DNA of 64,000 nucleotides from Nitrospirales bacterium. GTDB taxonomy: Bacteria; Nitrospirota; Nitrospiria; Nitrospirales; UBA8639. This document shows positions 663 through 36,258 of this stretch, one piece after another. A model generated the notes under the pieces. It was given only the letters and a program-made list of their open reading frames with translations, was not told the DNA's origin and ran no database searches. The number at the start of each line of letters is the position of its first letter. Position 1 is the first letter of the stretch. The DNA is taken from the NCBI GenBank assembly GCA_963422365.1, contig OY729426.1, positions 2,176,001-2,240,000 of the forward strand. The letters are read 5' to 3'. The position numbers were made by a program, and so were the translations under genes.

Positions 663-2393
663 ATGCCTTCAAGCACCCATGACCAGCCGCCGGCCCAGAC
701 CAACGAGAAGGTTTGGCAAGACAACGGTTTTGACCTGAGCCGGTACCTGCTCATACTGCTCACTTGGTGGCGGGAGATCATCTTCGTTTCAGTTTTAGCC
801 GCCGCTGGTGGTTTGGTGATGAACGGGGTCTACCAGACCTTGTGGCCGAGGTATACAGCCTCGGCCATGGTGACCATCATACCCACGAGAACCGATATTT
901 CCATCACCAAGGAAATTTCTAACGTGGACAGGCAACAGACGCAGGCCACCCTATCAGCCAGGCAGTCCGCGTTGCTGGGACTCGTCTACAACGGCGAAGT
1001 GGCCCGGACCGTGTTCCGGCGCGTGGGCGGACAGTTGAGCGAAGAGGAACGCTCAATGAGCTGGCTACTCCGTGATTCCATCACAGGCGAACTGGTCGAA
1101 TCCCAAAACCGTGACAAGGTCAGCGACCTGATCCGCATCCAGGCGACCGCCAGATCGCCGGAGACGGCGCAGGTGATCGCCAACGCTTGGGCGAAAGAGT
1201 ACGTGAACCATGTGAGTTTTCTGTGGCAGACCGACCCTGAATTGCGCAAGTCGATCATGACGGAGCTGGCCAACACACAGGACCGGTATCAAGTTGCCCA
1301 ACAGAAACTGGAACAATATATCAGCACCAACCAGACCGAGCGACTGGATCGGGAGATCCAAGAAAAGCGAAAAGCGATCGAGAAACTCTCAGCATCTCGG
1401 GAAGTGTTCATTGAGGCTCGCACAATTGCCTTGAGCAGAGTGTACGAGGCCGACAAGAAGGTTGAGTCTGCCAAAGTTGATAGTTTCAATCAGAAGGTCG
1501 AGTCGGCATTGTCGAGTCTGGCCGGCAGCTACGAAGTCCGGCAGAAGCTGATCCGGCTCCTCGACGACGCGCAAGGACTTCGCGACCTGATCGAGAGAGG
1601 CGGCGAAGCAGGCACCCAGTCGAACGGGCTGGCCATCCTGCTACTCAAGGCCCAAACATTCGCATCCTCCACCGATTGGCCCGAAAGCCTGGAGTTGAGG
1701 ATCGATAACCAGAACGCGATGCACGAAAGCTTGGCGCAACAGCGGGCCGACGTCGATGCGCTCATCAAGACACTGCAAGACCGGATCGAGCGACTCAGGG
1801 AGACCATCGCCAGTCAATCTGAGAGTCTGTCCAACGGTGCAAGCCATGTGGCTGTGGATACCGGGCAAGCGGATGGAAGCGGCCGTCGCGTCGCCATCCA
1901 GGAACAATATTCCACCCTGTTCGTGCCCGATGGACCGAACGATCCCGGCAAAGACGTGGCCGGGAACTCCGCCGACTTGGACGAGGAGACGGCGGCAATA
2001 CAGGTGCTGCGAGACCGGTTGATCAATGGAGACGATCAGACCAAGCAGATCATCTTTGACCTAGAGGACAGCATCCAGACGCTGCAAGAGGCAAAGCAGA
2101 TCGCATTCGCCAATCTCAGGGAACTTACCAAAAAACGAGACCTGCTGATGAAATCCGTGAACATTCTACAAAGCAAGGTCATGGAGATAGACCTGGAGTC
2201 GGCCGCCACCAATGCGAAGATCCGCTTGGCGTCGCCAGCGGTGACAAGTTATTCTGACGGTTTGAGTCTTTTTCAGTCGACAGTTCTCGCCGGCATCGCC
2301 GGGTTGATCACGATAATGTTCTTCATCACATTCCTCGCAGAGCCCATGGGGGCAAGGCCCTTTTTCGCGCGGCACAAGGCAGCCGATGGATGA
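663..2393 (+). CDS. Polysaccharide chain-length determinant (Wzz/GumC-like co-polymerase) with a long coiled coil
   Basis: N-terminal 'FDLSRYLLILLTWWREII' plus TM and 'PRYTASAMV', then 'SPETAQVIANAWAKEYV', a long heptad region, and a C-terminal Pro motif plus TM. Confidence 0.8.
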   Translation: MPSSTHDQPPAQTNEKVWQDNGFDLSRYLLILLTWWREIIFVSVLAAAGGLVMNGVYQTLWPRYTASAMVTIIPTRTDISITKEISNVDRQQTQATLSARQSALLGLVYNGEVARTVFRRVGGQLSEEERSMSWLLRDSITGELVESQNRDKVSDLIRIQATARSPETAQVIANAWAKEYVNHVSFLWQTDPELRKSIMTELANTQDRYQVAQQKLEQYISTNQTERLDREIQEKRKAIEKLSASREVFIEARTIALSRVYEADKKVESAKVDSFNQKVESALSSLAGSYEVRQKLIRLLDDAQGLRDLIERGGEAGTQSNGLAILLLKAQTFASSTDWPESLELRIDNQNAMHESLAQQRADVDALIKTLQDRIERLRETIASQSESLSNGASHVAVDTGQADGSGRRVAIQEQYSTLFVPDGPNDPGKDVAGNSADLDEETAAIQVLRDRLINGDDQTKQIIFDLEDSIQTLQEAKQIAFANLRELTKKRDLLMKSVNILQSKVMEIDLESAATNAKIRLASPAVTSYSDGLSLFQSTVLAGIAGLITIMFFITFLAEPMGARPFFARHKAADG

Positions 2394-2614: not shown

Positions 2615-3925
2615 TCAGTGACTCGAGTGGGCGACTCGCGGAGGGTATCTGGCTGCAGCGGGCCGATGCCGGATTTCCACCTGACTCGCCGCCAGTGCGC
2701 AACTCAAACCGGCCAGAAAACAGTACGCCCCCAGCGTGAGCCAATGATGGAACGTGACGCCGAACAAGGCCATCACAACGGCCCAGCCGACGATGACAGG
2801 CCTGGCCAGGGAATTCGGCGTGATCCAATAAAACCGCAGCAAAGAGAAAAGAAACAGACAGTACAACCATAACGGGACAATGCCGGCTTCGCCAACCAAC
2901 ATCAGGTACACATTATGGACGCCTTCCGGTTTGCCACGATAGCTGATAGGTCCGCCAGGCAGACTATGGAGCCGACCCATGCCATGACCGACGATGGGTG
3001 ATTCCAAGGCCTTTGTAAGAGCGACTTCCCACAAAAACGGCCGATTCGTTCGAACGCCTGACATCCCCTCGCCGCTGAGAATCGCCACGACCGTATCAAT
3101 TTTTTCCTGTTGTTCGCCGTGCGACGTGATTGTTGTCAGGTTAACAGTCAAGTAAGCAAAACTGCCGAGCAAGTACGAAGCGAACAGCCAGCGGACGATG
3201 GGGCCTCGTCTCTCACGACCGTTGAACAGCAGAAAAAAGGCGAATAGCACACCCAGGACAAAAACGGCCGATACGGAAAATGATCCCAGTACCGCCCCGC
3301 AGCCAGCGGTCAGGCCCAGATAGGCTGGCACGCGACGTCGGACGCCGCCCAGCAGGGCCATGGCCAGCGCCGCCGTCATGCAACCGATGAAGCCAGCATC
3401 ATTGGGGTCGGTGAAGGTACCGGTCAAGCGAAAGGGAAGTCTGTAACCCGGCAGCACGCCGAGACCACTCAGGATCGGCGAAGCCAGAACCACGAGGCAA
3501 CTCGCGGTCAGAACCACAAGCATTCCCTTCAACAACGCCTCGGTCCCGACCCGCTCCAGCACCGAGCGTCCGCCGAGCAGGGAGGCCACGATCACCAGGA
3601 GGAAGAAGGTCTGGCGCAGCAGGTCTTTGCCCGCATCCGAGCCGTCGGCAACCGCCACGGTGCCGCCGATGACCAGATAAGATGCTACCGCGGCGAGGAG
3701 CAGCACTCCGGACGTTCCCCCGGCCAGCCACCATCGGGCACCGACCAGCACCACCAGGCACAGACAACAGGCGAGAGCGACCGCATAGCTCATGATAACG
3801 GGAGATCCCCAAAGATGCAGCCCTCGCACGTTGAGCAGCATCATGACGGCCAACATCCAGAAGGCAAGCGTGATCAACGTAGATTTTCCCCAGCCAGGAC
3901 GGACTCCGGTTGTCGCCCGGGTCAT
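2615..3925 (-). CDS. Wzy/O-antigen ligase family membrane protein
   Basis: Many TM segments; motifs 'RLTGTFTDPND', 'RPFLW..ALE.SPIVGHGMG' and 'HNVYLMLVGEAGIV' are typical of Wzy_C. Confidence 0.85.
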   Translation of the reverse strand: MTRATTGVRPGWGKSTLITLAFWMLAVMMLLNVRGLHLWGSPVIMSYAVALACCLCLVVLVGARWWLAGGTSGVLLLAAVASYLVIGGTVAVADGSDAGKDLLRQTFFLLVIVASLLGGRSVLERVGTEALLKGMLVVLTASCLVVLASPILSGLGVLPGYRLPFRLTGTFTDPNDAGFIGCMTAALAMALLGGVRRRVPAYLGLTAGCGAVLGSFSVSAVFVLGVLFAFFLLFNGRERRGPIVRWLFASYLLGSFAYLTVNLTTITSHGEQQEKIDTVVAILSGEGMSGVRTNRPFLWEVALTKALESPIVGHGMGRLHSLPGGPISYRGKPEGVHNVYLMLVGEAGIVPLWLYCLFLFSLLRFYWITPNSLARPVIVGWAVVMALFGVTFHHWLTLGAYCFLAGLSCALAASQVEIRHRPAAARYPPRVAHSSH

Positions 3926-3993: not shown

Positions 3994-5124
3994 CTACGCA
4001 GAGCCTGTTTTCCGACACAGGCCATGGAGGTCCGCAGCCATATGGCCGTACCAATCCGCACTGCGGAAGTCCTCCCCACGGCATTCGGCGCCCTCGCACA
4101 ACCGCCGGTACAAGGCTGGCTCGTCAAGCAGCCTCTCGATCGCAGCCCGAACCGCCACGGCAGAGCGGGGCTCCACCAGCAATCCGCTCTCCTCATGCTT
4201 GACGAGTTCGGGCACACTGCCGCATCTCGCGGCGACGACGGGCACGCCGCACTGAAAAGCTTCGAGGATGATGCCGGGATAGCCCTCGGTGCTGAAATAG
4301 CTAGGGAACAGCAGCAGGTCGTGCTCACTCAGCGCCCTGGGCACCTCCTCCGGCTCCAGCACGCCGCCATAGGTCGCCCGGGGATGGCCTTCGAACCCGG
4401 AGAAGTCCGTGTCGGACATACGCGGGCCGAAGACCTGAAGATGACAAGGCTCTGGCAAATGGCGGCACGCATCGAGGGCCTCGGCCAGCCCTTTTCGCTT
4501 GTCCAATCGGCCAACGAAGATCAGCTTGCTCACTGTGTCGCGCCGGGCCCTGGCCAGCGCCTGGACATTCCGCGTATTGGGGAACCGGCGGACATTGGCC
4601 AAGTTGCCAAAGTCCCTGTATGTTTGCAGGGTTTCAACGTATATCAGGGCGGAGCGCATCCAGGTCAGGTTGGCCAGCCAGCGGGCCAGAGCACCGTAGG
4701 CACGATAGACTTGGCCGAGGCTGGACGCGGAGAACCGTAGCACTAGAGGCCGGCGTACGATTTTGCAGATAATCCAGACAGATGTGGCCATGGTGAGCGC
4801 CGAATAGGGGGCAATGAGGAGAAACACGAGATCGGAGCGGAGGACCTTCTTTATGATGCTCCGGAGCACGTGGAGGAACCGTGCCAGGCGATAGGCCTGG
4901 ATTTTCCACGGGGGCAGATTGGTCACGCTTCCCGACGTGTCGATAACGTCGATCTCGAACCCCAGCGGACTCAGTTCGCGGATCGACTCCTCAGCCATCA
5001 CCCTGTTCCCCCCGACGACATTGGTGACGGACTTGCCGGAACCCACCGGAGCGATGAACAGGATGGTCGGCATTCGATGTTTGATATCAGCCATAATATC
5101 AGCCATAAAGAGGGCTCGCCTCAA
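3994..5124 (-). CDS. Glycosyltransferase family 4
   Basis: 'FVGRLDKRKG' and 'PSYFSTEGYPGIILEAFQCGVPVVA' (EX7E) motifs. The true start may be a downstream Met. Confidence 0.9.
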   Translation of the reverse strand: MRRALFMADIMADIKHRMPTILFIAPVGSGKSVTNVVGGNRVMAEESIRELSPLGFEIDVIDTSGSVTNLPPWKIQAYRLARFLHVLRSIIKKVLRSDLVFLLIAPYSALTMATSVWIICKIVRRPLVLRFSASSLGQVYRAYGALARWLANLTWMRSALIYVETLQTYRDFGNLANVRRFPNTRNVQALARARRDTVSKLIFVGRLDKRKGLAEALDACRHLPEPCHLQVFGPRMSDTDFSGFEGHPRATYGGVLEPEEVPRALSEHDLLLFPSYFSTEGYPGIILEAFQCGVPVVAARCGSVPELVKHEESGLLVEPRSAVAVRAAIERLLDEPALYRRLCEGAECRGEDFRSADWYGHMAADLHGLCRKTGSA

Positions 5125-6639: not shown

Positions 6640-7115
6640 CCCGCCAAACCAAATTAGACTTTGGGGAGATGGCGACCCACGCCGTTATCAAAATCAAGGT
6701 GAAGGAGGTAAGTCGTGTCTGATTGGATCTACCATGCCTCAACTTTTCCCTTATAAGGTGCGATAAGCTGATCATAAAAATCCAGTACTCTTTCTTGACA
6801 TCTTAAAAGCTCATCCTCTTTACGAAACACAATTGAACCAATGCCGGAGAGTCCCGGCTTAACCTTCATCATGATTTCCTGCATTTCTCTGGGGAAGGCG
6901 TTGAAACACCTTGGGATTTGTGGACGCGGTCCAACTATACTCATATCGCCTAGAATGACATTAAGTAATGGCGGACACTCATCGAGTTTAGTCTTTCGGA
7001 GAAATCTGCCAACAGGCAATACACGCGGATCATCTTTTATCGTGACTGTCCCATTGTGACTGTTCCGGTTCCAATATTCTGGCTATCCTTGAGCATGGCA
7101 GCAAATTTGAAGAGT
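6640..7115 (-). pseudogene. Fragmented initiating sugar (phosphoglycosyl) transferase, Bac_transf family
   Basis: FKFAAMLKDSQNIGTGTVTM / PRVLPVGRFLRKTKLDECP.LLNVILGDMSIVGPRP / KPGLSGIGS motifs. It has a frameshift, an internal stop and no N-terminus. Confidence 0.8.
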
Positions 7116-7305: not shown

Positions 7306-7544
7306 TCGGAAAAATGTTGCGGTTTTCGCCCGACATTTAGAGCTAACAGAGCCATATGCAGCGCCGCTGTTCCAATTTGCAACGGCACGACAATGAGTTC
7401 CATCACCTAAAAAACGCACTGAATTGGGATTCGAACTGAGCGACTCTTTTTCCCATGGAAAGCCAGCCGCCCTGAATAACTTCTGATGCAGCAACTTCGC
7501 GATGATCAAAATTTAACTCAAAAAGCTGTATTGTCCACATTATC

Positions 7545-8250
7545 TAATCACGCTTTTTAATCCAGCATACAATATGTGACCGCAGTAATGGGCACGAATT
7601 AAATACGTAATAAAGCGCCGGGGGTACGTGACAGACGCGCCGACTCATAACCGGCGACAGGGTGACTTTTTTACCAATAATCTCAGCTTCTGGAAATAGT
7701 TCTTTCACTCGACGCAGAGGACTCCCCTGACATCAGGGTTAGCAGGATTACTGTACAAAAAATCATAGAAAATCACTCCGCCGCCTAGTTTGACCCAACC
7801 CCACATTCTATCTGCCAGATTCTGCCGGAAGTCATCATCTAACAACGGGGGAAAACAACAGGCTGAAAGGACAACATCCTGAGATTCTAGTGACAGTCCT
7901 GCCAAAGCAGCATCACCCTCGATAAGATTTACTGCTTTGGGGAGCATCTCTCTGGCCCTGATCATCCTGTCAACCAGCACTTCAATACCTGTAAGATGCG
8001 CAGGAGAGAAACCAAGGGCCAAAAACTCCGGAATATGTCTCCCGGCACCACAACCTACGTCCGTCAGTTTGAGCTCAGATAAGCTTATATGTGAAAATTC
8101 GCCAACCAATATTTTACATATTGAGTGCTGAAGTTCTTAATGACTAAACAAAACCTCTGGTCGCAACCGTGAGTAGAGTGAAGCGACGGTTCTTTTTCTA
8201 TACCGGTCAGCCAATTCTCTCATTTCCAGATGTGGATTATTCATACGCGA
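7545..8250 (-). pseudogene. Frameshifted class I SAM-dependent methyltransferase
   Basis: 'LTDVGCGAG' SAM motif and 'GGGVIFYDFLYSNPANPDVRGV'. The C-terminal part (RRVKELFPEAEII..VTLSP) continues in another frame. Confidence 0.7.
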
Positions 8251-8271
8251 CCTTTCGACAAGGGTGTCCGA

Positions 8272-8757
8272 TTATGTTCCAGTCACCACATTTATCGGTG
8301 GGGTCTGATAGACAGAAGATCGAGCGGCGCCACCCGTTCCAATTTTCGAACTAAATACCGCTGAAATAGCATCATTTTTGCCACCCGGTGATTTGACTTG
8401 CCAGGGACCACCAACACAATTCGCACCTGAATCGGCAAGTACTTCGATACATTTCCTCACATAATTTTTGGCGTAAATAGTATGAACGTCCATGCGTCTC
8501 ACATACTCACCTTTTGCAATCATAATCGCATTGTTCAGCCCGGTGGGGACGATTCGATCAGCATTTTCAAGCACTACGATTTCAGGATGAGTTTCTAATA
8601 ATTCGTCAAACATGACACTGGTCCCATCATTACTTTTCCCATCAACTATAATGAACTCACAATCAAGACCAGTGCGATCCTGGCTGAAAACCTGAGACAC
8701 AAATTCCCTGATATGGGATTTTTCATTGAAGCACGGCGTTATTATTGAGACGAGCAT
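8272..8757 (-). pseudogene. Truncated ExoA-like GT2 glycosyltransferase
   Basis: 'VSIITPCFNEKSHI..IIVDGKSNDGT..GLNNAI..RMDVH..ANCVGGP'. It stops after 161 aa, about half the length of the intact paralog. Confidence 0.75.
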
Positions 8758-9356: not shown

Positions 9357-12300
9357 TCACACATTGCGGTCAGTGGCAGCACTGTTCACCACCCCCGCAG
9401 CAAGGCCGATCAGGATCCAGGCCAGACATCCCACGCTGAATATGTTTTGTAGCAGATGAATGTCGAACGTTTCGCATATAAGAACAGCGATAGTGCAGGC
9501 TGCGGCGTAGCAATGCACCGGGGTGACTTGCACGCCGGTGCGCACACGCAGGTTGAAAATCAGGGAAGCGCACAGGAGCGCGAGCGCGCCAAGGCCGAAA
9601 ACCCCTGTCTGTACCCCCACCTGCAAGTAGAGATTGTGGGCGGAAGCGGGAATGGTCTCGAAAGTCAAAGGGTCTACCGCGGCGTTGATGCGCTTGACAA
9701 CATCGCCAAGAGAGGCGAATCCGGGGTCCGGTGCCGCGCCGCACCCGGGAAGTCCATCGGGTCGGGCGCGGGGTTGGCCGCTACTTTGGCCGAGCGGCGG
9801 AAGGCAGCCGGTGAATTGGTTGCCGCGCAGGTGCAGGACCGAGAGCGCATCGAGCTCTGCCAGTTCCGGCGGGATGGCGTCGGTCAGATGGTTGTCCCCA
9901 AGCCACAGCTCCGAAAGGTTCGCGAGTTGGCCGAGCTCCGGCGGAACCGGGCCGGTCAGGGCGTTGGCATCCAGGCCGAGTTCGCGTAAGTTGGCGATCT
10001 GCCCCAGCTCCGGCGGGATGGGGCCGGTCAGATGGTTGTCCCCAAGCCACAGCTCCGAAAGGTTCGCGAGTTGGCCGAGCTCCGGCGGAACCGGGCCGGT
10101 CAGGGCGTTGGCATCCAGGCCGAGTTCGCGTAAGTTGGCGATCTGCCCCAGCTCCGGCGGGATGGGGCCGGTCAGATGGTTGTCCCCAAGCCACAGCTCC
10201 GAAAGGTTCGCGAGTTGGCCGAGCTCCGGCGGAACCGGGCCGGTCAGGGCGTTGGCATCCAGGCCGAGTTCGCGTAAGTTGGCGATCTGCCCCAGCTCCG
10301 GCGGGATGGGGCCGGTGAGCCGGTTGTCGTTGAGGCGCAGCCAGATGAGTTGGTCCAACTCCGCCAACGCCGCCGGCAGACGCCCATCGAGACCCATCCC
10401 GGACAAATCCAGACCGACCACCCGCTTCGTTTCCTGTGCAGCGGCTCCCCCTCGCGCTCCCCGACCGGCGGACCGCACCGGACTCACGGTGACGCCCTCC
10501 CAGGCAGAGATGGGCGTGGCATAGCTCCAGTTCAGGCTGGCGCTGCCGGCCAGGAGGTCGCGTATCTCCATCAAGGCGATAGCGTCTTCGCGCAAGCTGC
10601 GTTGGTTCGGGTGCGACGGATCGCAGAGCAGGTCGAGCTCCAGCTCGCGGTCCGCCAGATCATGCAATGCAAACGGAATGCAGCCGCTGAATTGGTTGCC
10701 GCCGAGCCGCAGCGCCGAGAGCCTGGTCAGCGCCCCCAGTTTCGGCGGAATAGCCCCGGTCAACCGATTGGCCCGCATGGACATCTCCTCCAGGTTCGCT
10801 AGGCTTCCCAGCTCCGAAGGGATAGCACCGCTCAATGCATTGTCGTCAAGCGCCAGCACCCGCAACTTGCTCAGCCGCCCCAGCTCGGACGGAATGGGCC
10901 CGGTCAGGGCATTATCGCTGAGGTGCAGCCAGACCAGGCTCTGCAGTTGCCCCAGCTCCGGCGGGATGGCGCCGGTCAACCCAGCCCCCGAGAGATCCAG
11001 CGCGAACACGCGCGGCGGTTCGCCGCCCACCGCGACGCCCTGCCAGGCATTGACGGGCGTGGCGTGGCTCCAGTTCAACACGCCACCACCATCCAGCAAC
11101 TCTTCTGCGGCCAGCAAGGCGGTGCAATCGCCGGCCAGGTTGTCCGCCTGCGCGGGCAGGCCGCCATCCATGCCCTCGGACGGGCAGAACAGATCGGGGC
11201 CGATGCGCCGCACGGTCGCGTCGGCAACGGCGTCGCCGCCAGGACGTGGAGCCGAAGGCGCTGCCGATGCTGCCGACGCCCGTGGCGTGTCGATGCCATT
11301 TCCGACAAGCCGCATTTCCTCCAGGTTCGGCAGCTTCGCCAGTGCGGGAGGAACCGGGCCGCTCAAGGCGTTGAAATCGAGCGCCAGCGTCCGCAGTTTC
11401 GCCAGTCCCGCCAGTTCCCGGGGAATCGGTCCGGTGAGCCGGTTGCGGCGCAGGTGCAGTAAGGCCAGTTGCTCCAGATCGCCGAGCTGCGGCGGAATAG
11501 GACCGCTCAGGGCGTTGGAACCAAGCACAAGCTCGCGCAAGTGGGTCAGCCGCCCCAACTCCGGCGGGATGGCGCCGGTGAGCCGATTGCGGTGGAGGCG
11601 CAGCACTGCAAGCCGGTCCAACTCCGAGAGGGCCGGGGGAATGCGGCCGCTCAGTCCCTTCTCCCGCAGAGTCAGCCCCGTCACCCGCGCCGGCGCACCG
11701 TCCAGCACCACGCCTTCCCAATATTCAAGGGGCGTCGAGTCGTCCCAATTCAAGGAGGCGGCGCCGGCCAGAACGTCCCGTGCGGACAGCAGAATCGCAC
11801 GGTCGGCAAGCAGGCCGGGGTTGCTCTGGAGGTATGTCGGGCTGGACAGGTCGGGGTCATGCCTGCCTGTCAGTGCAGGCGCAGCAGACTCCGGATCGAC
11901 ATCGTCACGTCTGGAGTCTTCCGGCGCCGCGTCGACGAAATCGTTATGCGATAGTTTGATGGACTCCAGTTTCTCAAGCCTTCTCAACGTCGGCAGGATG
12001 GAACCGGACAGGCGATTGAACTGGAGATTTAGCCACTTGAGGTTCTGCAGATGGCCCAATTCCGCTGGAATCGACCCGGTCAAACGGTTCGAGGCCAGGC
12101 TCAAGCCGCGCAGGCTGCGCAGATTACCCAACTCGGGTGGGATGGGACCGGTGAGCTGGTTGTCGTACAGATGCAGCAGGGTCAGGCTTTCCAGGTCGCC
12201 AAGCTGCGGCGGAATGGCGCCGGTGAGGGCATTGTCGCCGAGCAGAAGCTCCTGCAATTCAGCGAGACTCCCCAGTCCTGGCGGGATAGCGCCGGTGAGC

Positions 12301-15300
12301 CGGTTGCCGACAAGGCGCAGCGCCACAAGCCGGTCCAGCTCCGAAAGGACCGGAGGAACGATGCCGGTCAGCGCCATCGACGGCAAATTCAGCTCGACCA
12401 CACGAGCCGGCGCGCCGTCCAGCACCACGCCCTGCCAGAATTCGATGGGGATCGCGTCGCTCCAACCCAGCGTCGCTTCGCCCGCCAGAACGTCCCGTGC
12501 GGTCAGCAACACGGCGCAATCGTGGACCAGGCCGGGATCACTCCGGGGCGCCGCGCGGCGGCAGTGCCGATCGCGGTCGAGATCATGGGCCGCGACATGG
12601 CGTAGCGCGGACGGCGCGGCGCCCGTGAAATCATTGCCGGCAAGTCGCAGCGAGGACAGATTGCCCAGCATTGCCAATTCGGACGGGATATCGCCGCTCA
12701 ATTCGTTGCCGTTCAGCCACAGCTCTTTCAGATACGCAAGCTTTCCCAGTTGCGGCGGAATCGAGCCGGTGAGCCGGTTGCCGGCGAGGCGCAACGACAT
12801 AAGTTGATCCAGCCCGTCGAGCGCGGGTGGGATCCGGCCGCTCAGCCCGAGCCCCGTCAAATCCAGCTCAACCACTCGTGCGTCTCCGGCTGCCTCGCCT
12901 ATTATCACGCCAGGCCACGCACTGATGGGCCGAGAGCGTTTCCAGTCGAGCGCGGCATTGCCGGCCAGAACACCCCGCACGGCCAGCAGGGTGTTGCAGT
13001 CGCTGAGCAGTCCTCCATCGATGCCCAACCCCGACAGGCAGAGCAGATCCCGGGCAAAATCGTGGTCCGCCACCTCGTACAGTCCTTGCGGCACAGCACC
13101 GGAAAAGTCGTTGCCGGCGAGGCGCAGCACCCGCAGGTTACGCAGCCGTCCCAGCTCGGGCGGAATCGGGCCGGTCAGAGCATTGTTGCTCAGCCTCAGC
13201 AGTTCCAGCCTGTTCAGGTGCCCCAACTCCGGTGGCAGGGTGCCGCGCAAGTCCTTTTTCGGCAAATCCAACCCGATCACGCGAGCCGGCGCGCCACCTA
13301 CCTTCACGCCCTGCCACGCCCCGATGGGCCGGGTTCGTTTCCAGTTGAGCGTGGCGTCGCCCGCCAGAACGTCCCGCGCTTCCAGCAGCGCGGTGCAATC
13401 TTCGAGCAGGCCGTTGCCGATACCCGGCGATGGGAATCCTGCCTTGCCGGCAGGCAGGCAGAACAGATCAAGACCCCAATCGTGCTCGCCGACATGGTCG
13501 AGCGTCGGCGGCAAGCCGCCAGCAAGATCGTTTCCGGCAAGTCGCAGAATCGACAGACCGAACGGCCGACCGAGTTCCGGCGGAATGCTGCCGCTCAGCC
13601 GGTTGTTTGCGAGCCGTAACTCCCTCAGGCGCATGAGTTCCCCCAGTTCCGGCGGAATGGAACCGGTGAGCCGGTTGTCGCCAAGGCGTAGCGACACGAG
13701 CCCGTCCAGCGCGCCGAGCGCGGGCGGGAGCCGCCCGCTCAGCCCGAGCCCCGTCAAGTCCAGCCCGACTACTCGTATGCCCCCTGGAGCCTCGCCGACT
13801 GCCACGCCCTGCCATGCCGCGATGGGCCTGGCGCGTTTCCAGTCAAGCGCGGCGTTCCCGGCCAGGGCGTCCCGCGCAGCCAGCAGGGTCTCGCAGTCGG
13901 CGAGCAGACCCTTGCTGAGTCGCGGTAACGGCAGGCAGAACAGGTCCCGGTCGAGGTCATGGTCCGCCGTATCGTGCAGCGCCGCCGGCACGGTGCCGGT
14001 GAAGTCGTTGCCGGCAAGACGTAGCAGCGACAGGTTGGTTAGATTCGCCAGTTCTAACGGTACTTCGCCGCTCAGCCGGTTGCCGCGTAACCACAGATCC
14101 TCAAGGTTTTCGAGCGCTCCGAGTTGCGGTGGGACGGGGCCGCTCAAGGCATTGTCGTCGAGCGCCAGCACCCGCAAGTTGCTCAGCCGCCCCAACTCGG
14201 ACGGGATGGGGCCGGTCAGGGCGTTGTTGCTCAGCCTCAGCAACTCTAGCTTGTCCAGCCGCCCCAACTCCGGCGGAACGACGCCGGCCAATCCCCGTTT
14301 CGACAGATCCAGCGCGACCACCCGCGGCGGCGCGCCACCTACCTTCACACCCCGCCAATCGCGGAGAAGCCTGGAAGGCTTCCACCTCCCAAGAGCTCTG
14401 AAGCCACCGTCCAGGGCATTCCGCGCCTCCAGCAGCGCGGCGCAGTCTTCGAGAAGACCCGGGTTCCAATGGTCCATGCAGGAAGGATCGAGGTCCGACG
14501 GTCTCGCGGCAGGAAGTGCATCCCCCGCCTTGCCGGTCGGCAGCTCGCCCGTCAGGCGTGTGAGCACAGCGCCAGGACCATGGCCAAGCCAGGGGGACTC
14601 CGAGATGGCGACCAGCGAGTACCGCCACAGCACCTCACGACCGGTCAGGAGACTGCCTCCTGTGAAATCTCTGACGGAATCGCCGAAAATCGCTTCTACT
14701 GCATCGGACAACGAAGTGCCCAACAGCACGATTGGTGCGCCGATGAGCAAACCGGCGGTCGCCACCAATACGCCGGTGCGTAACCGGTTTCGCAGGAAAA
14801 AGTACCCGCTCCAGTACAACGGATAGGCCAGCAACGCGGCAAGCACTAGCGATCGGTATCCGAAGATGATGGCAATCAACGCAACCAACAGGAACAGGCT
14901 GTGCGCCCACCAATGCTGACTCTTTCGGTTGTCGGAGCGGGCGATGACGATGAGCCCGACGGTCAGCAGCAAGTAGCTCAGAAGGATGGCGATGCCGTGC
15001 GGGTTGAACTCGGTCGGTAGCAGGTACAGCGGAAACAGTGCCGAGGCTGCTGTCAGCAAGAGGGGGATAACGTACTTGGCCCGAATCAATGTCGGAGCAT
15101 TGCGCCAGCAGAACAGAAAGATGACGCCGGCGAACAGAATCGCGACAAGATTGCTGGCGCCCTGGAGGCTGAACTCCACGAGCAGGCCGGCCGCGTAGAC
15201 CGTCATCAGCGCGGCGAAGCAGAGGACGGTCGTCCGCGCGGAGGCCGGAAATGGCTCCCTGAACAGCGAGAGCGCGAGGAACAACAGGGTCACGCCGAAG

Positions 15301-15512
15301 ATCCCGTCGGCGATCGGGCCGGGAGCGTAGATGCGCAGCAAGTTCGCCGCCAACAATAAAGCCAGCAGCACCAAGCTGTCGCCGGGGAAGGACAGACGCC
15401 TGGCGATCACGCCGAGTACGGACGCGCCGCCGATCAGCGCACGTCGAATCCGTGCGACGTAACGATGCCCGGCAATCCGGTGGGACATGTCCGCAACGCC
15501 GGACCGCTTCAC
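9357..15512 (-). CDS. Giant Wzy/O-antigen-ligase-family membrane protein with an inserted array of 8 capped plant-type LRR modules
   Basis: Uninterrupted 2051-aa ORF. The TM-rich N-terminus ends in 'TGREVLW...SPWLGHGPG' (~aa 314). Then come ~1640 aa of 24-aa LxxLxxLxLxxNxLxGxIPxxLG repeats, followed by 'SAHNLYLQVGVQTGVFGL' and TM helices. Confidence 0.9.
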   Translation of the reverse strand: MKRSGVADMSHRIAGHRYVARIRRALIGGASVLGVIARRLSFPGDSLVLLALLLAANLLRIYAPGPIADGIFGVTLLFLALSLFREPFPASARTTVLCFAALMTVYAAGLLVEFSLQGASNLVAILFAGVIFLFCWRNAPTLIRAKYVIPLLLTAASALFPLYLLPTEFNPHGIAILLSYLLLTVGLIVIARSDNRKSQHWWAHSLFLLVALIAIIFGYRSLVLAALLAYPLYWSGYFFLRNRLRTGVLVATAGLLIGAPIVLLGTSLSDAVEAIFGDSVRDFTGGSLLTGREVLWRYSLVAISESPWLGHGPGAVLTRLTGELPTGKAGDALPAARPSDLDPSCMDHWNPGLLEDCAALLEARNALDGGFRALGRWKPSRLLRDWRGVKVGGAPPRVVALDLSKRGLAGVVPPELGRLDKLELLRLSNNALTGPIPSELGRLSNLRVLALDDNALSGPVPPQLGALENLEDLWLRGNRLSGEVPLELANLTNLSLLRLAGNDFTGTVPAALHDTADHDLDRDLFCLPLPRLSKGLLADCETLLAARDALAGNAALDWKRARPIAAWQGVAVGEAPGGIRVVGLDLTGLGLSGRLPPALGALDGLVSLRLGDNRLTGSIPPELGELMRLRELRLANNRLSGSIPPELGRPFGLSILRLAGNDLAGGLPPTLDHVGEHDWGLDLFCLPAGKAGFPSPGIGNGLLEDCTALLEARDVLAGDATLNWKRTRPIGAWQGVKVGGAPARVIGLDLPKKDLRGTLPPELGHLNRLELLRLSNNALTGPIPPELGRLRNLRVLRLAGNDFSGAVPQGLYEVADHDFARDLLCLSGLGIDGGLLSDCNTLLAVRGVLAGNAALDWKRSRPISAWPGVIIGEAAGDARVVELDLTGLGLSGRIPPALDGLDQLMSLRLAGNRLTGSIPPQLGKLAYLKELWLNGNELSGDIPSELAMLGNLSSLRLAGNDFTGAAPSALRHVAAHDLDRDRHCRRAAPRSDPGLVHDCAVLLTARDVLAGEATLGWSDAIPIEFWQGVVLDGAPARVVELNLPSMALTGIVPPVLSELDRLVALRLVGNRLTGAIPPGLGSLAELQELLLGDNALTGAIPPQLGDLESLTLLHLYDNQLTGPIPPELGNLRSLRGLSLASNRLTGSIPAELGHLQNLKWLNLQFNRLSGSILPTLRRLEKLESIKLSHNDFVDAAPEDSRRDDVDPESAAPALTGRHDPDLSSPTYLQSNPGLLADRAILLSARDVLAGAASLNWDDSTPLEYWEGVVLDGAPARVTGLTLREKGLSGRIPPALSELDRLAVLRLHRNRLTGAIPPELGRLTHLRELVLGSNALSGPIPPQLGDLEQLALLHLRRNRLTGPIPRELAGLAKLRTLALDFNALSGPVPPALAKLPNLEEMRLVGNGIDTPRASAASAAPSAPRPGGDAVADATVRRIGPDLFCPSEGMDGGLPAQADNLAGDCTALLAAEELLDGGGVLNWSHATPVNAWQGVAVGGEPPRVFALDLSGAGLTGAIPPELGQLQSLVWLHLSDNALTGPIPSELGRLSKLRVLALDDNALSGAIPSELGSLANLEEMSMRANRLTGAIPPKLGALTRLSALRLGGNQFSGCIPFALHDLADRELELDLLCDPSHPNQRSLREDAIALMEIRDLLAGSASLNWSYATPISAWEGVTVSPVRSAGRGARGGAAAQETKRVVGLDLSGMGLDGRLPAALAELDQLIWLRLNDNRLTGPIPPELGQIANLRELGLDANALTGPVPPELGQLANLSELWLGDNHLTGPIPPELGQIANLRELGLDANALTGPVPPELGQLANLSELWLGDNHLTGPIPPELGQIANLRELGLDANALTGPVPPELGQLANLSELWLGDNHLTDAIPPELAELDALSVLHLRGNQFTGCLPPLGQSSGQPRARPDGLPGCGAAPDPGFASLGDVVKRINAAVDPLTFETIPASAHNLYLQVGVQTGVFGLGALALLCASLIFNLRVRTGVQVTPVHCYAAACTIAVLICETFDIHLLQNIFSVGCLAWILIGLAAGVVNSAATDRNV
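9881..10316. repeat. Perfect tandem repeat, 3 x 144 bp (two LRR units per copy), inside the LRR array
   Basis: Identical units begin with CGGTCAGATGGTTGTCCCC at 9881, 10025 and 10169. Confidence 0.95.
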
Positions 15513-16657
15513 TCGGAACCTCTCACGATGTCCTTGATCGCATCCCGCAGGATGATGTCTTCATTCCCCAGCGTGTACTCATCAGGCGGCAGCGCCGCCA
15601 TATTGGCCCGCCAACGATCCCAGATCGCGGCCTCGATACTGCGTATCTCCGCCGCCGCCGCTTCAATCTCGGACGACGCGATGGTCAGTCCGATGTCGAA
15701 CCGACGCACCTGATCGGCATCCCCGCAGCCAGCCCGAACGATGATCGGCCTCTGGAAGAGGCAGGCATCATAGTACCTGTTCGTCCGCTTCCAGCCGTGT
15801 GGTTCCCCTGGCGGATAGCAGACCAGGGCCATGTCGACGCGGCCATAGAGTACCGGCAGATCCGTCGGATGGTCGTAGGGGCCGAGAATCTCGCTGTTGG
15901 GCATTTCTCCCTGTATTTCCGAGAGTTTCCGGCAGGGCGCCGATTGCGGCCCGGCGAGAACTGCGGAGAACCGGTCGGTCGTGCGCATCAACGAGTCGAG
16001 AACGCGCAGCGACCATTCATCTCTCAGGTAGCCGAACCAGCCAATGCGCAGCGGCCGGTCCACCAGCGGTCGGCCCTTCGGGGGATACGCGCACTTGGCG
16101 CGGACGACCGCCGCAAACCGTCCATCGACCTTGTTTTCGATGATCACACTCGGCGTCTCTAGCTTCAGCCGGTTGCGGTAGTAGTCGGAGTAGCCGTCGG
16201 TCGTCAGCACCAGCAGCCGGCAGGCGCGAGTCGTCAGCTTGTCAATCGCTCGAACCGTGCGCCCGAGCAGGCCGGCGGCGACCTGAATCTCCCGGATGTC
16301 CGCCGCCTCGACGACAACGGGCACTTTCAGCCTGGGTCCGGAGAGCAAGGCCAGGAGAGCCATATCGGCATTGAACGCATAGACGACGTCATTGCGGCGC
16401 ATGGCAGCTCTGACCTTGGGTACGGCCAACATCAATTTTCTGATTCGGGCGCCGTAGCGCCCGTTCGAAATGTCCCCTAGTTCCACGAACGGGCAGTCTG
16501 GCCGGCGGCCGAGATAATGGCTGCGTTCGAAACCCAAAGCTTCGACCCGAAAGCCCACCTGCCGCAACATGTCGACGCGCTTGGAAATCCTGGCATCGGT
16601 TCCTATCGGCAGGATGCAAAGCACTCGAATTGTCATGACCCGCAATCTGCCAGGCAA
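15509..16657 (-). CDS. ExoL-like GT-B glycosyltransferase
   Basis: 'DARISKRVDML..GFRVEALGFER', 'LRIGWFGYLR', 'GPYDHPTDLPVLYGRVD' and 'NRYYDA' resemble the succinoglycan ExoL family. Its stop overlaps the start of the LRR-Wzy gene. Confidence 0.7.
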   Translation of the reverse strand: MPGRLRVMTIRVLCILPIGTDARISKRVDMLRQVGFRVEALGFERSHYLGRRPDCPFVELGDISNGRYGARIRKLMLAVPKVRAAMRRNDVVYAFNADMALLALLSGPRLKVPVVVEAADIREIQVAAGLLGRTVRAIDKLTTRACRLLVLTTDGYSDYYRNRLKLETPSVIIENKVDGRFAAVVRAKCAYPPKGRPLVDRPLRIGWFGYLRDEWSLRVLDSLMRTTDRFSAVLAGPQSAPCRKLSEIQGEMPNSEILGPYDHPTDLPVLYGRVDMALVCYPPGEPHGWKRTNRYYDACLFQRPIIVRAGCGDADQVRRFDIGLTIASSEIEAAAAEIRSIEAAIWDRWRANMAALPPDEYTLGNEDIILRDAIKDIVRGSE

Positions 16658-16659
16658 TT

Positions 16660-17036
16660 CATCCTTGTCCTTCTGCCTACCTTCGCCCGGTTCTGTCCCG
16701 GGGCGGAAGGAAGAAGCCGGCGCTCCAGCGAATGGCGTAGGTGCTGTCCAACGTGCTGACGAGAAAGGAGCTTCATCCGGATTGGTCTAGGCCGGCATAT
16801 ATTATGATGGGCATATTAAGATATGGCCCCATTCCGACTTCCATGACCGTTGCGCCCGCGGGGCGGCGTCCATGTGCTCGTATCGCGTCGGCCAAATCCA
16901 CACAGAGATTGATATGGTGTTTGGGCGTATTACGAGAGCTAAAAAGCCGCTGGGCGTATCTGTAGCACTTACGGCCCAACGGTTCGGCAGGGCGGCGAAT
17001 GCGTTCTGCAATCTTGCCTTGGTTTGCCATTTCATG
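16660..17036 (-). pseudogene. Remnant of a class I SAM methyltransferase
   Basis: MKWQTKARLQNAFAALP (frameshift) EPLGRKCYRYAQRLF...GATVMEVGMGPYLNMP, then truncated. Confidence 0.55.
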
Positions 17037-18444
17037 ATCCGATCCCATTCCTTACAGTTTTCCACAGGTATGCGAAATCAGCGCGGCGCGGCAGCCAGAT
17101 GGCGCACAAGGTCGCGCCGGTCCGCCAGTGGAACATCATGGCGAGGTAAGCGGTGCGGACAATCAGCCCGATGGTCATGGCCCAGGCGGCGGCTTCGATG
17201 CCGAGCGCCGGATGCAGCGCCAGAAACGAGGCGATATTGGCGATCAAGCCGAACCACACGGCCCAGGAACAGACTCCCGGCCGGTTCACGCCGCTGAAGT
17301 AGGTAATGAACATGCCGCCCCCGGCGTAGGCGAGGATCCCGGGCGCCAGAATCCACAGCAGCGGCACCGCCGGCAGGAAGGCCTCGGAAAGCAGAACCCG
17401 CACCAGCGGCGTGCTGATGGCCAGCAGCACCGCCAGCGCACCGCCGGTCGCCAAGCAGACCAGGCGCAGATTGAGCCCGACCAGCTTTTCGGGCTGCTTG
17501 ATCGCGCCGCTTGCCACGCGCGGGTACAGGACGATTCCGACCGCGCTGGAAATCAGGCCGAGGCGGAGCATGAGCATACTGGCAGCAGCGAACAGCCCGA
17601 TGTCGGCGCGGCCGGCCAGCATGCCCAGAGCGAATACGCCGACATGCGGTTCAGCCTCGTTTCCCACCCGCATGACGTGGTACCGCAAGCCATAGCCGAG
17701 CACCCGGCGACACCCTGACAGGGACGGCAGCTCGAACGCCAGCCCGCAATGCTTGCGCAGGTCACAAAGGCAGGCGGCAGTCATGAACACATGACCGGCG
17801 ATCAAGGCCATGAGGGCCCCGTCCACCCCGAGCTCCAGATGCCACACCAGAGCCACAGTTGCCAGCACCACGACCAGGGATTGGGCCGGCAGGAAAACTG
17901 CGAGCGGTCCGAAGCGCCGCAGCCCGGCGAGCTGCAACTCCACCGCGACCGACATCGAGATGAGCGGCACCAGCGCCAGGGACAGATGAAAGGAGTGGGC
18001 GGGCGCTTGCCGGAAAAAAGCCAGACTGCCGTGGATGAGCGGCAGCGCTACCGCCACCGCCACGGCGCTGCCGACGAGACAGGCGGCCAGGGCCAGGAAC
18101 AGGCTTTGTGACAGGCTGATCTGCCTGGCAACGGCGTAGTACTGGGCGCCGCGGTCGATGCTGAAGGTGAAGACCACGCTCAGCAGAAACGCAAACGTGA
18201 CGCAGACCGCGTAGGCGCCTCGACCTTCGGGCAGCAGGAGGTAGGCCAGCAGGCTCTGGGTCAGGATGCTGACCGCGTACACCCCGGCCCGGGACGTGAA
18301 GGTGACGGCGACTTCCTGCCCGCCGGCCATGTTCACACTGCGTGCGGCAGCGGTCCGGTCGATCATGGTATCATCGCGATCCGGTCTCTCGCGGCAGGCG
18401 CTGCTCACGAATTTCGCCACGTCCGGTTCTCCTCCGACAAGCAT
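17032..18444 (-). CDS. Wzx-type oligosaccharide flippase
   Basis: About 12-14 hydrophobic segments; 'LAYLLLPEGRGAYAV', 'IGLFAAAS' and 'HPALGIEAAAWAM' motifs. The start may be a downstream ATG. Confidence 0.85.
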   Translation of the reverse strand: MLVGGEPDVAKFVSSACRERPDRDDTMIDRTAAARSVNMAGGQEVAVTFTSRAGVYAVSILTQSLLAYLLLPEGRGAYAVCVTFAFLLSVVFTFSIDRGAQYYAVARQISLSQSLFLALAACLVGSAVAVAVALPLIHGSLAFFRQAPAHSFHLSLALVPLISMSVAVELQLAGLRRFGPLAVFLPAQSLVVVLATVALVWHLELGVDGALMALIAGHVFMTAACLCDLRKHCGLAFELPSLSGCRRVLGYGLRYHVMRVGNEAEPHVGVFALGMLAGRADIGLFAAASMLMLRLGLISSAVGIVLYPRVASGAIKQPEKLVGLNLRLVCLATGGALAVLLAISTPLVRVLLSEAFLPAVPLLWILAPGILAYAGGGMFITYFSGVNRPGVCSWAVWFGLIANIASFLALHPALGIEAAAWAMTIGLIVRTAYLAMMFHWRTGATLCAIWLPRRADFAYLWKTVRNGIGS

Positions 18445-18496: not shown

Positions 18497-19471
18497 CTAA
18501 CCCCGCCTAGCCGGCAGGAAGAAGCCGAGGCCCCAGCTCAGGTGCATGGTCGGCAGCACCAGGGGCAGGAGGACAGCCGCCGCATCCCGGCGCCGAATAC
18601 CCACAGCCGCCGCCCCGGTCACGAGAGCCAGCATGTAGGCGAGCGACACCGCAACTCCCCCCGTGTTTCCAGCCACGGCTAGGAATGCCGAGGCGGTCAA
18701 GCCCAGGACCAGCAGCGGGGCGGACACATGTCGAGGCCGCAGCGATCGCGGATGTCGTCGCAGCACCACCCGCTTCCATCGGCCATAGTCGAAATATTGC
18801 CGGGCGAGCAACCGCAACCGGCCGCGCGGCCGGTAAGTGACCACGAGCTCGGGATCAAACCACACCGTTCCCCCGCGTTCCCGCAGCCGCCAGTTGAGTT
18901 CATAGTCCTGATTGCGGACCAGAGTAGCGTCGTATCCCCCCACCTCCTCCAGCACCTCGCGCCGGAACGCGCCCAGGTAGACGGTGTCGACCGGTCCCTC
19001 AACGCCGCCCAACCGATAGCGGGCGTCCCCGGCTCCAAGTGGCGTGGTCATCGCCAGCGCCACAGCCCGCTCGAAGAAGGTGGTGCCGACCGGCTGTTGC
19101 CGGCCGCTGACATTGGCCGCCCCCGTCCTCTGAAGCGTCTCGACCGCACGGCGGACATAGCCGGGCGGGAACGTGGTATGGGCGTCGCAGCGCATGATGA
19201 TCTCGCTGCTCGAGGCCCGAAGCGCCGCATTAATTCCAGCCCCGGTGACCTGTTCCGGATTGGGGACCACCCGCACCGTCGGGTGGGACCGCCGGATAAG
19301 CTCGGCCATACCCGGGGTGTCGGCACCATCGGCCACGATCACCTCCACCGCCCCCGCGTACTCCTGGGTCAGCACCGAGTCGAGCGCCTCTGCAATGCTC
19401 GCCTCCGCATTGCGGGCTGGGATGAGCACTGATACTCGGGGGGGGATTCGAGATTTGTCGATGTCTGACAT
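18497..19471 (-). CDS. ExoA-like glycosyltransferase family 2
   Basis: 'VSVLIPARNAE', 'RCDAH', 'VDTVYLGAFRR', 'RNQDYELNWRLR', 'QYFDYGRWK' and C-terminal TMs. Confidence 0.9.
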   Translation of the reverse strand: MSDIDKSRIPPRVSVLIPARNAEASIAEALDSVLTQEYAGAVEVIVADGADTPGMAELIRRSHPTVRVVPNPEQVTGAGINAALRASSSEIIMRCDAHTTFPPGYVRRAVETLQRTGAANVSGRQQPVGTTFFERAVALAMTTPLGAGDARYRLGGVEGPVDTVYLGAFRREVLEEVGGYDATLVRNQDYELNWRLRERGGTVWFDPELVVTYRPRGRLRLLARQYFDYGRWKRVVLRRHPRSLRPRHVSAPLLVLGLTASAFLAVAGNTGGVAVSLAYMLALVTGAAAVGIRRRDAAAVLLPLVLPTMHLSWGLGFFLPARRG

Positions 19472-23092: not shown

Positions 23093-24391
23093 ATGCCTCA
23101 TGGTGCCTTAGCTGAACAGATCGCCGTGGAATTCATTCGATCAATCAAGAACGTCTCAATGGTTTCTCCTGAAACGATTTTCAGATATGGGCTGATGATG
23201 ATCGCGTTGTTTATTCTAGTAGACAAAGCGCACCATGTGGTTGAGTATTGTTTTGTCGGATTGTTGATTGTGTGGGGCAGCGTCAAGCTGAGCCGTCGGG
23301 ATTACCACTTCGTCAGGACTCCACTCGATCTTCCCATCTTGCTGTTTGTCATCTGGATATTGGTGACCATCCCCTTTTCCGTGGATCCAGCGTATAGTTT
23401 GACGGAATGGCGCAAGACCGTCGTGAAAATTCTCATGTTCTATTTCGTGGTGAACGTGGTGCGCACAGAACAAGACGTGCGTTCCATTCTTCTGGCGTTC
23501 ATGCTGGGTGTCGTGGCATTGAGTGCGTTCGGCATCGTCGACCATCTGGTGAAAGGAAACAGCCTTTTCGACAAAACCAGCCACACGGCTTCTCTGTCGT
23601 CGTCAGGGCAATGGTTTTCTACGTACCTGGTGATGGGAGTTCCGTTTGTGTGGCTGGTTTTTCTGGAACGTGAGGGGAGACACGCAACATGGTCCATCGG
23701 ACTCCTCTTCGTCATGATTCTGACCGCGTTGTTCTTGTCGCATACAAGGGGAGCCTGGGTGGCCTTTTTTGCCCAATTGGCGGTATTTGGATTGCTAAAC
23801 GTTAAACACAAATGGCGAACATGGGGTCTCGTAGCTGTAACGTGTGGAGTGATCTTTATTGGTGGATCCTTGTTCAAGGAGTTTCAAGGCAATCTTGCCC
23901 ACAACATTCAGGACATTCCTCTTCCAAGTTTGTTGGCTATGAACACTATGAAAATTCGACTCGATATCTGGCAAACAACCATCGAACAAATTCTGGCCCA
24001 GCCTATCCTAGGCTATGGATACGGCAATCATACGTTTCAACAAATCAACAAAGAAATACTCGTTGGGTTTGATAATCGTTTAATGACACTGCATGTGCAT
24101 AACGCATGGTTATCTCTAGCCTATGAAGTAGGGCTGATCGGGTTTGCCTTATTCGCCTTTGTCTATTTCATGATAATCCGGGCAGCAACGCAGGGATGGA
24201 AGAAATGGAGAGGGACCTTCGTTGGAAATCTTGGCTTATGCATTCTTCTGCTGGCTGTAGGAGTGGTCACAAGAAACATGTTTGATACCATGTTTGCCGG
24301 AAGTTTGGCGTATCTGTTTTGGTTGTTAACCGGCCTGTATTTCGCCCTCAGGATTCACCAGGACACAAGCGGTCGAACATCATCAGACTAG
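23093..24391 (+). CDS. O-antigen ligase (WaaL-like)
   Basis: Many TMs; 'LSHTRGAWVA', 'RLDIW..QPILGYGYG' and 'HVHNAWLSLAYEVGLIG'. Confidence 0.88.
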   Translation: MPHGALAEQIAVEFIRSIKNVSMVSPETIFRYGLMMIALFILVDKAHHVVEYCFVGLLIVWGSVKLSRRDYHFVRTPLDLPILLFVIWILVTIPFSVDPAYSLTEWRKTVVKILMFYFVVNVVRTEQDVRSILLAFMLGVVALSAFGIVDHLVKGNSLFDKTSHTASLSSSGQWFSTYLVMGVPFVWLVFLEREGRHATWSIGLLFVMILTALFLSHTRGAWVAFFAQLAVFGLLNVKHKWRTWGLVAVTCGVIFIGGSLFKEFQGNLAHNIQDIPLPSLLAMNTMKIRLDIWQTTIEQILAQPILGYGYGNHTFQQINKEILVGFDNRLMTLHVHNAWLSLAYEVGLIGFALFAFVYFMIIRAATQGWKKWRGTFVGNLGLCILLLAVGVVTRNMFDTMFAGSLAYLFWLLTGLYFALRIHQDTSGRTSSD

Positions 24392-36252: not shown

Positions 36253-36258
36253 CCTTGT

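Follow-up and report, generated by a model that had tools for sequence, protein, structure and literature searches.

WaaL ligases (PF04932; CAZy GT121; PDB 7TPG/7TPJ) have a GT-CB fold with a long outer loop, and their catalytic set comprises two arginines and one histidine (PMC10920833). The histidine is a mark of the ligases (GT121), whereas the Wzy polymerases of clan GT-C1 (GT125-129) have Asp or Glu at this acceptor-activating position (PMC10920833). These polymerases contain one or two conserved arginines, are encoded in one cassette with glycosyltransferases and Wzx, and are partnered with the co-polymerase Wzz. The O-OTases PglL, PglS, TfpO and TfpM also have a Wzy_C domain with an essential histidine (PMC9829042), and WadA combines a GT121 enzyme with a further globular domain, a GT25 (PMC10920833). 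Enzymes of this kind bear on two general problems, how the Wzy pathway sets chain length and how a WaaL-fold enzyme chooses among glycan, lipid and protein acceptors. We found no description in the literature of a Wzy_C enzyme with an inserted LRR array. The enzyme analyzed here lies in a 64-kb window, that is, the whole stretch of DNA that was analyzed.

An LRR array in the outer loop of a WaaL-fold enzyme

The enzyme belongs to a lineage designated family 1, and its parts are the following; the helices of the N-terminal membrane part are based on the structure model of a relative.

9357..15512 (-), family-1 enzyme of 2051 aa, a Wzy_C/WaaL fold into which the LRR array is inserted
14571..15395 (-), membrane part at the N terminus (aa 40-314), which ends with GR..LW and PWLGHGPG
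14853..14855 (-), R220, counterpart of WaaL R191
14637..14639 (-), R292, counterpart of WaaL R265
9639..14570 (-), LRR insert of 1644 aa, with eight capped plant-type modules and 16 cysteines
9636..9638 (-), H1959, counterpart of WaaL H313
9357..9710 (-), C-terminal part with re-entry helix, AHNLYL and three membrane helices

The intact 6.1-kb frame described in the earlier note was confirmed, since the ORF at 9357-15512 (-) encodes 2051 aa with zero stops. The two flanks of the insert form one Wzy_C domain, as PF04932 positions 2-104 match the N-half and positions 120-147 match the C-half in the same frame. The REVLW (aa 292), PWLGHGPG (aa 307-314) and AHNLYL (aa 1958) motifs delimit the insert, which runs from G314 to H1959, and the expected Arg/Arg/His site of WaaL-type enzymes is intact. 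In the model of a relative, both halves are predicted to re-form the WaaL fold, from whose outer loop the module protrudes, and a chimera was ruled out as the origin of the LRR-bearing ORF. The structural match to WaaL has 16% identity, and the enzyme differs from WaaL by its 1644-aa insert, compared with ~14 to 25 aa in relatives, and by its location in a mobile Wzx cassette instead of as the ligase of an LPS-core locus. In contrast to WadA, where the appended domain is catalytic, the addition here is a noncatalytic repeat array inside the catalytic loop. Overall, these results support a single WaaL-fold enzyme whose large outer loop holds an LRR array of the plant-receptor type.

The earlier note had also considered that the transferase might mainly anchor a host-interaction LRR domain in the membrane. 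The plant-receptor fold, the LRR proteins reported in sponge symbionts (PMC4453008) and a paralogue, P0015, which lost both arginines and retained ten modules, are consistent with this idea. Nevertheless, the triad is present in 35 of the 36 insert-bearing enzymes compared, and the enzyme is under purifying selection. Moreover, both ends of the insert are anchored in an inner-membrane protein, so that it faces the periplasm, and the hosts identified belong to two-membrane lineages. Because the loop is periplasmic, a host-facing role of the array is unlikely, and the anchor explanation as a whole seems highly improbable.

Composition and evolution of the inserted modules

Two further features were identified within the insert.

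11223..11297 (-), Ala/Ser/Pro-rich linker (aa 1406-1430) joining modules 6 and 7
9903..10334 (-), tandem array of three 144-bp units, two of them the same, which lengthens module 8

As proposed in the earlier note, the insert contains eight modules, whose W.GV caps are at aa 386, 567, 733, 866, 1026, 1265, 1490 and 1671. A strict pattern recovers 32 LRRs spaced by 24 aa inside modules, and both the LxxLxxLxLxxNxLxGxIP repeat and the N-cap fold of plant-type LRRs were found. This combination is shared with the ectodomains of plant LRR receptors (SERK/BAK1, GSO1, ERL1 and PGIP), and the module superposes on SERK ectodomains with an rmsd of 1.7 to 2.8 A and a TM-score of ~0.8. However, the enzyme has many short capped modules arranged serially in a loop, has no kinase and is not single-pass, the array being flanked by the two Wzy_C halves. 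In the relatives that have a C-half, the last repeat group mostly consists of four repeats, unlike the extended module 8; given this difference and the three 144-bp units, two of them identical, the copy number in module 8 is due either to recent expansion or to an error in the assembly.

The LRR core is strongly conserved (dN/dS of 0.03 to 0.09), and no dN/dS value above 1 was found in the comparison of LRR arrays. The concave faces are rich in Arg, His and Trp, and their conservation is no higher than that of the remaining surface, which argues against a single fixed ligand. The number of modules varies freely, from 0 to 17 across the enzyme series and from 1 to 17 in insert-bearing forms. 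Neutral insertion, in which a permissive loop simply tolerates a recombinogenic repeat, could account for the mosaic divergence along the gene, the recent tandem duplications and the frameshifted copies at two loci (L003 and L005). Against it stand the conserved core, the even number of cysteines in 35 of 36 inserts, the location of 100 of 102 module matches (10 genomes) in Wzy_C genes, and the retention of the array in different phyla although it costs as many as 2,900 extra residues; we therefore regard neutrality as the least probable explanation, and a very improbable one.

Neighboring genes and putative acceptors

The genes around the enzyme include the following.

15509..16657 (-), GT4 glycosyltransferase overlapping the enzyme start codon; travels with family 1
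17032..18444 (-), Wzx-type flippase (PF01943)
18497..19471 (-), GT2 glycosyltransferase
6804..7064 (-), broken priming phosphoglycosyltransferase, the genome's only PF02397 match
23093..24391 (+), full-length WaaL-like gene native to the host, close to the LPS-core genes

The GT4 stop overlaps the GTG start of the enzyme as GTGA (15509-15512), which agrees with the translational coupling suggested previously. The decay of neighboring genes, also suggested, was seen at 5334-8757 (broken GT2s and the broken priming transferase) but not upstream, where GT2, Wzx and GT4 are intact. The enzyme is encoded with Wzx and repeat-unit glycosyltransferases in the window and in 5 of 10 genome loci, and it sits in a GC-rich Wzx cassette, while the WaaL-like gene at 23093-24391 is near GT9 genes. 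In addition, membrane glycosyltransferases nearby also bear added outer domains.

An alternative function is that of an O-OTase or ligase moving a single repeat unit en bloc. The array would then catch periplasmic protein acceptors, such as adhesins that are being exported or the Ala/Ser/Pro linker of the enzyme itself. The His-type triad is that of GT121 and the O-OTases, and the profile of the insert-less family matches the OTase 9RMK at an E value of 1.5e-10 (WaaL, 3e-13). LRRs are usually protein binding, and secreted subtilase genes lie close to two of the loci (L007 and L067). Furthermore, Wza-type exporters were absent in 5 of 5 genomes checked; this absence and that of Wzz (7 of 10 family-1 genomes and L067; see below) would be expected if no polymer is made. 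However, no conserved acceptor gene was found beside the LRR-bearing gene. TfpO and TfpM have a cognate pilin immediately upstream (PMC9829042), whereas the gene upstream of the LRR enzyme is GT4 in the window and at L002, L003 and L005. The best score of the enzyme against the TfpM model is 27.5 bits, versus a cutoff of 600. PglL and PglS have an extra C-terminal domain after Wzy_C; here only ~90 aa follow the histidine, and no extra OTase domain was matched in Pfam at an E value of ≤0.01. The unremarkable conservation of the concave face, the freely drifting module number and the replacement of the array by another domain in family 2 (see below) also speak against protein-acceptor capture; we consider the O-OTase or ligase reading somewhat unlikely, although it is the leading rival to the one favored below.

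Relationship between LRR arrays and Wzz

A second Wzy_C lineage, designated family 2, is also represented in the window.

2615..3925 (-), insert-less family-2 member (Wzy_C)
3994..5124 (-), GT4 travelling with family 2
663..2393 (+), Wzz-like co-polymerase, of the kind found beside insert-less family-2 genes

The genes at 2615-3925 and 23093-24391 had been taken as ordinary members in the earlier note; the gaps of 19 and 24 aa between GxGxG and HN, counted from their translations, stand, but the lineage of the former is itself often LRR bearing. Family-2 relatives have the same LRR array placed before the R..W motif, and at this site the array was replaced once by an unrelated domain. The presence of this module in a second Wzy_C lineage, at another loop position, is newly described here.

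Like Wzy polymerases, relatives in family 2 appear to be partnered with Wzz. Each of the genomes that have the insert-less form (5 of 5) also contains Wzz, although the profile was trained on 4 of these, leaving G059 as the only independent match, and not all are independent (G053 and G057 are kin, as are G005 and G023). Wzz was not seen in 4 of 4 genomes with insert-bearing family-2 forms alone. Generic Pfam models are insensitive to these proteins (18.9 bits for the window's own), so that divergent co-polymerases could go unnoticed. Wzz appears tied only to insert-less family 2 and to none of the LRR-bearing genes, whose accessory part, in contrast to the Wzy/Wzz pair, belongs to the same polypeptide.

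The reading that we tentatively favor is a polymerase with a built-in, Wzz-like periplasmic LRR scaffold. GT2 and GT4 are predicted to build the lipid-linked repeat unit, and Wzx to flip it; the WaaL-fold enzyme would then polymerize it. The LRR modules, probably periplasmic and disulfide stapled, would form a loop that holds and measures the growing chain, replacing the Wzz co-polymerase. The chain may touch the Arg/His/Trp-rich concave faces, module number might set its length, and the host's own WaaL would ligate the product. A ruler or scaffold role, among the possibilities raised earlier, gains support from the Wzz exclusivity in family 2, the free module number and the ordinary conservation of the concave face. 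Nevertheless, the histidine is at the position where GT-C1 polymerases have Asp or Glu (PMC10920833), and, because it is found in 36 of 36 insert-bearing enzymes, the enzyme is not filed in GT125-129, though it may work like them. In family 1, Wzz was not found in 7 of 10 host genomes; L067, the sole readable insert-less outgroup locus, has none within 20 kb, and family 1 may therefore never have had Wzz. Moreover, within the genus, 35 of 38 genomes are without this Wzz, and the window contains both Wzz and the LRR-bearing enzyme.

Alternatively, the enzyme could be a functional polymerase or ligase whose active site the array covers as a steric shield or a crowding cage; the array would exclude phage-encoded inhibitors, ligases of foreign origin or host peptides and would not influence chain length. 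A conserved fold with a free surface, insertion at two sites that border the same active-site region (one also holding an unrelated domain) and the added outer domains of nearby membrane glycosyltransferases would fit. However, a shield leaves the Wzz/insert exclusion in family 2 and the growth to 17 modules unexplained, and the dN/dS above 1 that an arms race might give is lacking in the arrays compared; we judge it, including the proposed targets, unlikely. The built-in scaffold is directly testable as a ruler, since nature provides a graded series of the same enzyme in which the module number runs from 0 to 17 and two permissive sites are used.

Distribution and origin of the LRR arrays

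A search of other genomes for the split Wzy_C and LRR architecture found further family-1 and family-2 carriers. The design has spread between bacterial phyla, and the arrays occupy different loop sites in the two lineages, flanking the same active-site region. The description of the array as eukaryote-like applies to the fold; the nearest donors found are bacterial surface adhesins, which contain a related LRR module. The best Atlas clusters for the module are mostly bacterial, with some plant or algal, and a tree of the modules favored no particular origin. In the 10 genomes, the concentration of module matches in Wzy_C genes indicates that no donor pool is spraying other genes. An adhesin-derived array may have been grafted twice beside the active site in two marine Wzy_C lineages and replaced Wzz, with module number (1 to 17, through tandem duplication and a small cassette swapped between phyla) setting glycan length; this fuller scenario is speculative and, taken whole, rather doubtful.

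Two loop positions of a GT-C enzyme accept more than 1,500 inserted residues with the catalytic residues still under selection, and such permissive positions could be of use for glyco-engineering. Finally, the sole such LRR array in the window's genome is the one in this inner-membrane glycan enzyme, and counts of eukaryote-like LRRs in symbiont genomes therefore need not imply host contact.

The LRR array and the split Wzy_C domain

The genes of the window that are discussed here are as follows.

663-2393, plus strand: Wzz-like co-polymerase
2615-3925, minus strand: insert-less family-2 Wzy_C gene
9357-15512, minus strand: family-1 Wzy_C gene with LRR array
15509-16657, minus strand: GT4 of the cassette
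17032-18444, minus strand: Wzx of the cassette
18497-19471, minus strand: GT2 of the cassette
23093-24391, plus strand: the host's own WaaL-like gene

The earlier note had read 9357-15512 as one intact frame in which eight LRR modules divide a Wzy_C domain, and this was borne out. The frame is stop-free over 2051 aa, PF04932 matches it in two separate parts, covering positions 2-104 and 120-147 of the model, and 1644 aa separate PWLGHGPG (aa 307-314) from AHNLYL (aa 1958). Each of the eight modules combines a cap (D-C-x-x-L-L ... W-x-G-V ... R-V) with between two and eight LRRs that recur every 24 aa. In line with the proposed coupling to the upstream glycosyltransferase, the GT4 stop overlaps the family-1 start codon (GTGA). 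Neither insert junction is chimeric, as DNA matches from locus L002 span them (9385-10040 at 89.5% and 13159-18344 at 93.7%). No other open frame with this LRR pattern occurs in the genome, a single contig of 2.50 Mb with 98.6% completeness, and the GC content of the gene is 0.58-0.67 versus 0.53 for the genome.

Using the membrane half alone as query, we recovered 15 proteins of 1367-3236 aa, all 15 with LRR modules and the C-half; among seven shorter matches, one was complete and six were cut or frameshifted. A profile search returned 89 proteins, and both searches combined gave 36 full-length LRR-bearing members, including that of the window, whose module number ranges from 1 to 17 across the set. 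There are also four closely related sisters that lack the insert (401-464 aa), and the loop gap of the outgroup is mostly 14 aa. The LRR-bearing Wzy_C gene is a family, not an artefact. We placed 65 N-halves in a quick maximum-likelihood tree (SH-aLRT, no bootstrap); all LRR-bearing members fell in one 43-row group (SH-aLRT 96), with the insert-less sisters outside. One-module forms were sister to many-module forms in several subgroups, indicating that the array expanded repeatedly. The membrane half (14571-15395) is 79-84% identical to L002 and to protein P0002, whereas several LRR modules and the flanking GT4 and Wzx reach 92-98%, a contrast that suggests intragenic recombination. A paralogue at L013:6959-13708 (P0015 type, a cluster of 8 members) has lost both catalytic arginines and kept ten modules, and is possibly a non-catalytic derivative.

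Spread between hosts

Ten genome loci are recorded as Arenicellales, Gammaproteobacteria, Thalassobaculaceae, Thermodesulfobacteriota, Pseudomonadales, Ca. Azophilus and Ca. Azotimanducaceae, lineages of a kind typical of the microbiomes of sponges and other marine invertebrates. Since L002 and the window share GT4 and Wzx at 97% and 98% identity while GroEL of the two genomes is only 64% identical, the cassette must have moved recently from one distant host to another. The family-1 N-half was not found in 40 relatives, 24 of them of the same genus, and no relatives were found in the viral contigs searched. L003 holds a frameshifted copy, and one genome (G045) has three copies. At L007:16693-19967 and L013:3611-6827, the family-1 gene is followed by a GT2, a PF03706 membrane protein and a 483-488 aa protein instead of Wzx; these loci may use another flipping route.

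A second insertion site in family 2

The gene at 2615-3925 had been taken for an ordinary family member. It is itself insert-less, but its family is not ordinary, as all 14 long relatives carry the family-1 type of module, 4-9 times each. Here the array follows the last N-terminal helix and precedes the R..W motif, whereas family 1 has it between GxGxG and HN; the membrane halves of the two families barely align (best 36% over 49 aa). At L005, LRR genes of both families are adjacent; a GT2 frame there (L005:7415-8629) comes after an extended stretch of 12-base units (KQAS repeats), possibly a slippage tract. A cap profile built from the window's eight caps, biased to this module type, had 100 of 102 matches within family-1 or family-2 genes in 10 genomes, five of them chosen for family 1; the other two were weaker and lay in Calx-beta/cadherin/fn3 surface proteins. 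In a weakly resolved module tree, the last modules of both families grouped together, a hint that the array passed from one family to the other.

In one family-2 gene of genome G023, nested among LRR-bearing genes, the LRR site is occupied by an unrelated domain of 130 aa, which weakly resembles part of a neighbouring membrane protein (31% over 87 aa, E 0.005). Outer domains have also been added to membrane glycosyltransferase-like proteins at L019:1048-6520 and L003:6702-8669; one weakly matches the alternative insert and one is extended by a long C-terminal domain. Such grafting may be a general trait of these gene clusters. Genome G005 (L015:995-19999, L016) has two tandem family-2 LRR genes amid repeated GT4 genes, the second with VDNLYL instead of VHNLYL, and pieces of a second family-2 gene with a Wzx lie elsewhere in the window's genome (G000:C1:1455595-1458576).

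Wzz and the possible role of the array

A profile of the window's Wzz matched in 5 of 15 genomes, each time beside an insert-less family-2 gene.

Loci of the five Wzz matches
Window
L003/L022
L020
L021
L066

One of the five genomes, G059, was not part of the profile, and its family-2 neighbour was checked after the match. The profile found none in G005, G023, G041 and G043, where every family-2 gene bears an insert (Fisher p 0.008, although kin among the genomes are not independent cases); G044, G045 and G060-G063 likewise gave no match. This restriction counts for a Wzz-like role of the array. However, the generic models PF02706 and PF13807 are insensitive to window-type Wzz, which is absent from 35 of 38 genomes of the window's genus; the window carries both Wzz and an LRR-bearing enzyme; and L067, the single insert-less outgroup locus of family 1 that was read, has no Wzz within 20 kb.

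Gene order at L067
Subtilase-RTX
Sulfotransferase
Wzy_C
GT4
Sel1
GT2
Wzx

We tentatively prefer, at somewhat less than an even chance, that the family-1 enzyme would be a polymerase whose LRR array serves as a built-in chain-holding scaffold. An acceptor-selecting oligosaccharyltransferase (OTase) or ligase is favoured by the His, since PMC10920833 gives His to ligases and assigns Asp/Glu to related polymerases. Nevertheless, His-type family-2 genes adjoin Wzz in five genomes, the hosts own other full-length Wzy_C genes, each family is accompanied by a GT4 of its own, and no acceptor gene is conserved at the loci; TfpM-type OTases come after a pilin gene, according to PMC9829042. We rate this role as rather unlikely, second to the scaffold. 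LPS would be the simplest destination for a polymer, as no Wza-type exporter was found in any of five genomes. In the window's genome the priming transferase of the cassette is broken, but an intact WecA-like gene lies 21 kb before the window.

Across all 9 gene pairs the LRR core hardly changes (dN/dS 0.03-0.09); that the array is a neutral insertion seems the most improbable of the readings named. Concave-face positions change at the same pace as other surface positions (0.33-0.88 versus 0.32-0.82, none above 1), which argues against one fixed ligand. An anchor for host interaction is very improbable, and a steric shield is improbable to a lesser degree. Roles outside these five take the remaining probability. 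Basic residues take concave positions 8 and 13 in about 40% of 329 family-1 repeats, and position 8 often has His or Trp as well, a composition that would be compatible with weak, repeated chain contact, although high GC also favours Arg there.

The LRR-bearing Wzy_C enzyme is real and a variant of a known enzyme kind. Full-text literature searches gave no description of an LRR insert in a Wzy_C enzyme, and subscription journals and supplements, outside this scope, may mention one. For sponge cyanobacteria, PMC4453008 describes LRR/Calx-beta proteins as well as O-antigen change, and PMC12004945 gives pathway background. The present analysis adds a second site of insertion, the swapped domain, and the patterns of Wzz occurrence and of selection.

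Neighbourhood of the window locus

A broken GT2 at 5334-6775 shares 74% DNA identity with the intact GT2 (18497-19471), which suggests a merger of two related cassettes at this place. The interval from the cassette to the host WaaL contains a copper oxidase/nitrite reductase-like gene (20360-21400) with cupin and DsbA-like neighbours. A tRNA-Ser (24998-25085) inside the polysaccharide region is a possible integration site. Finally, a GC-rich island (36255-39852; 0.64-0.72) inside the LPS gene region contains open frames that, named by reading their translations, resemble phage Mu-like head morphogenesis and portal proteins.
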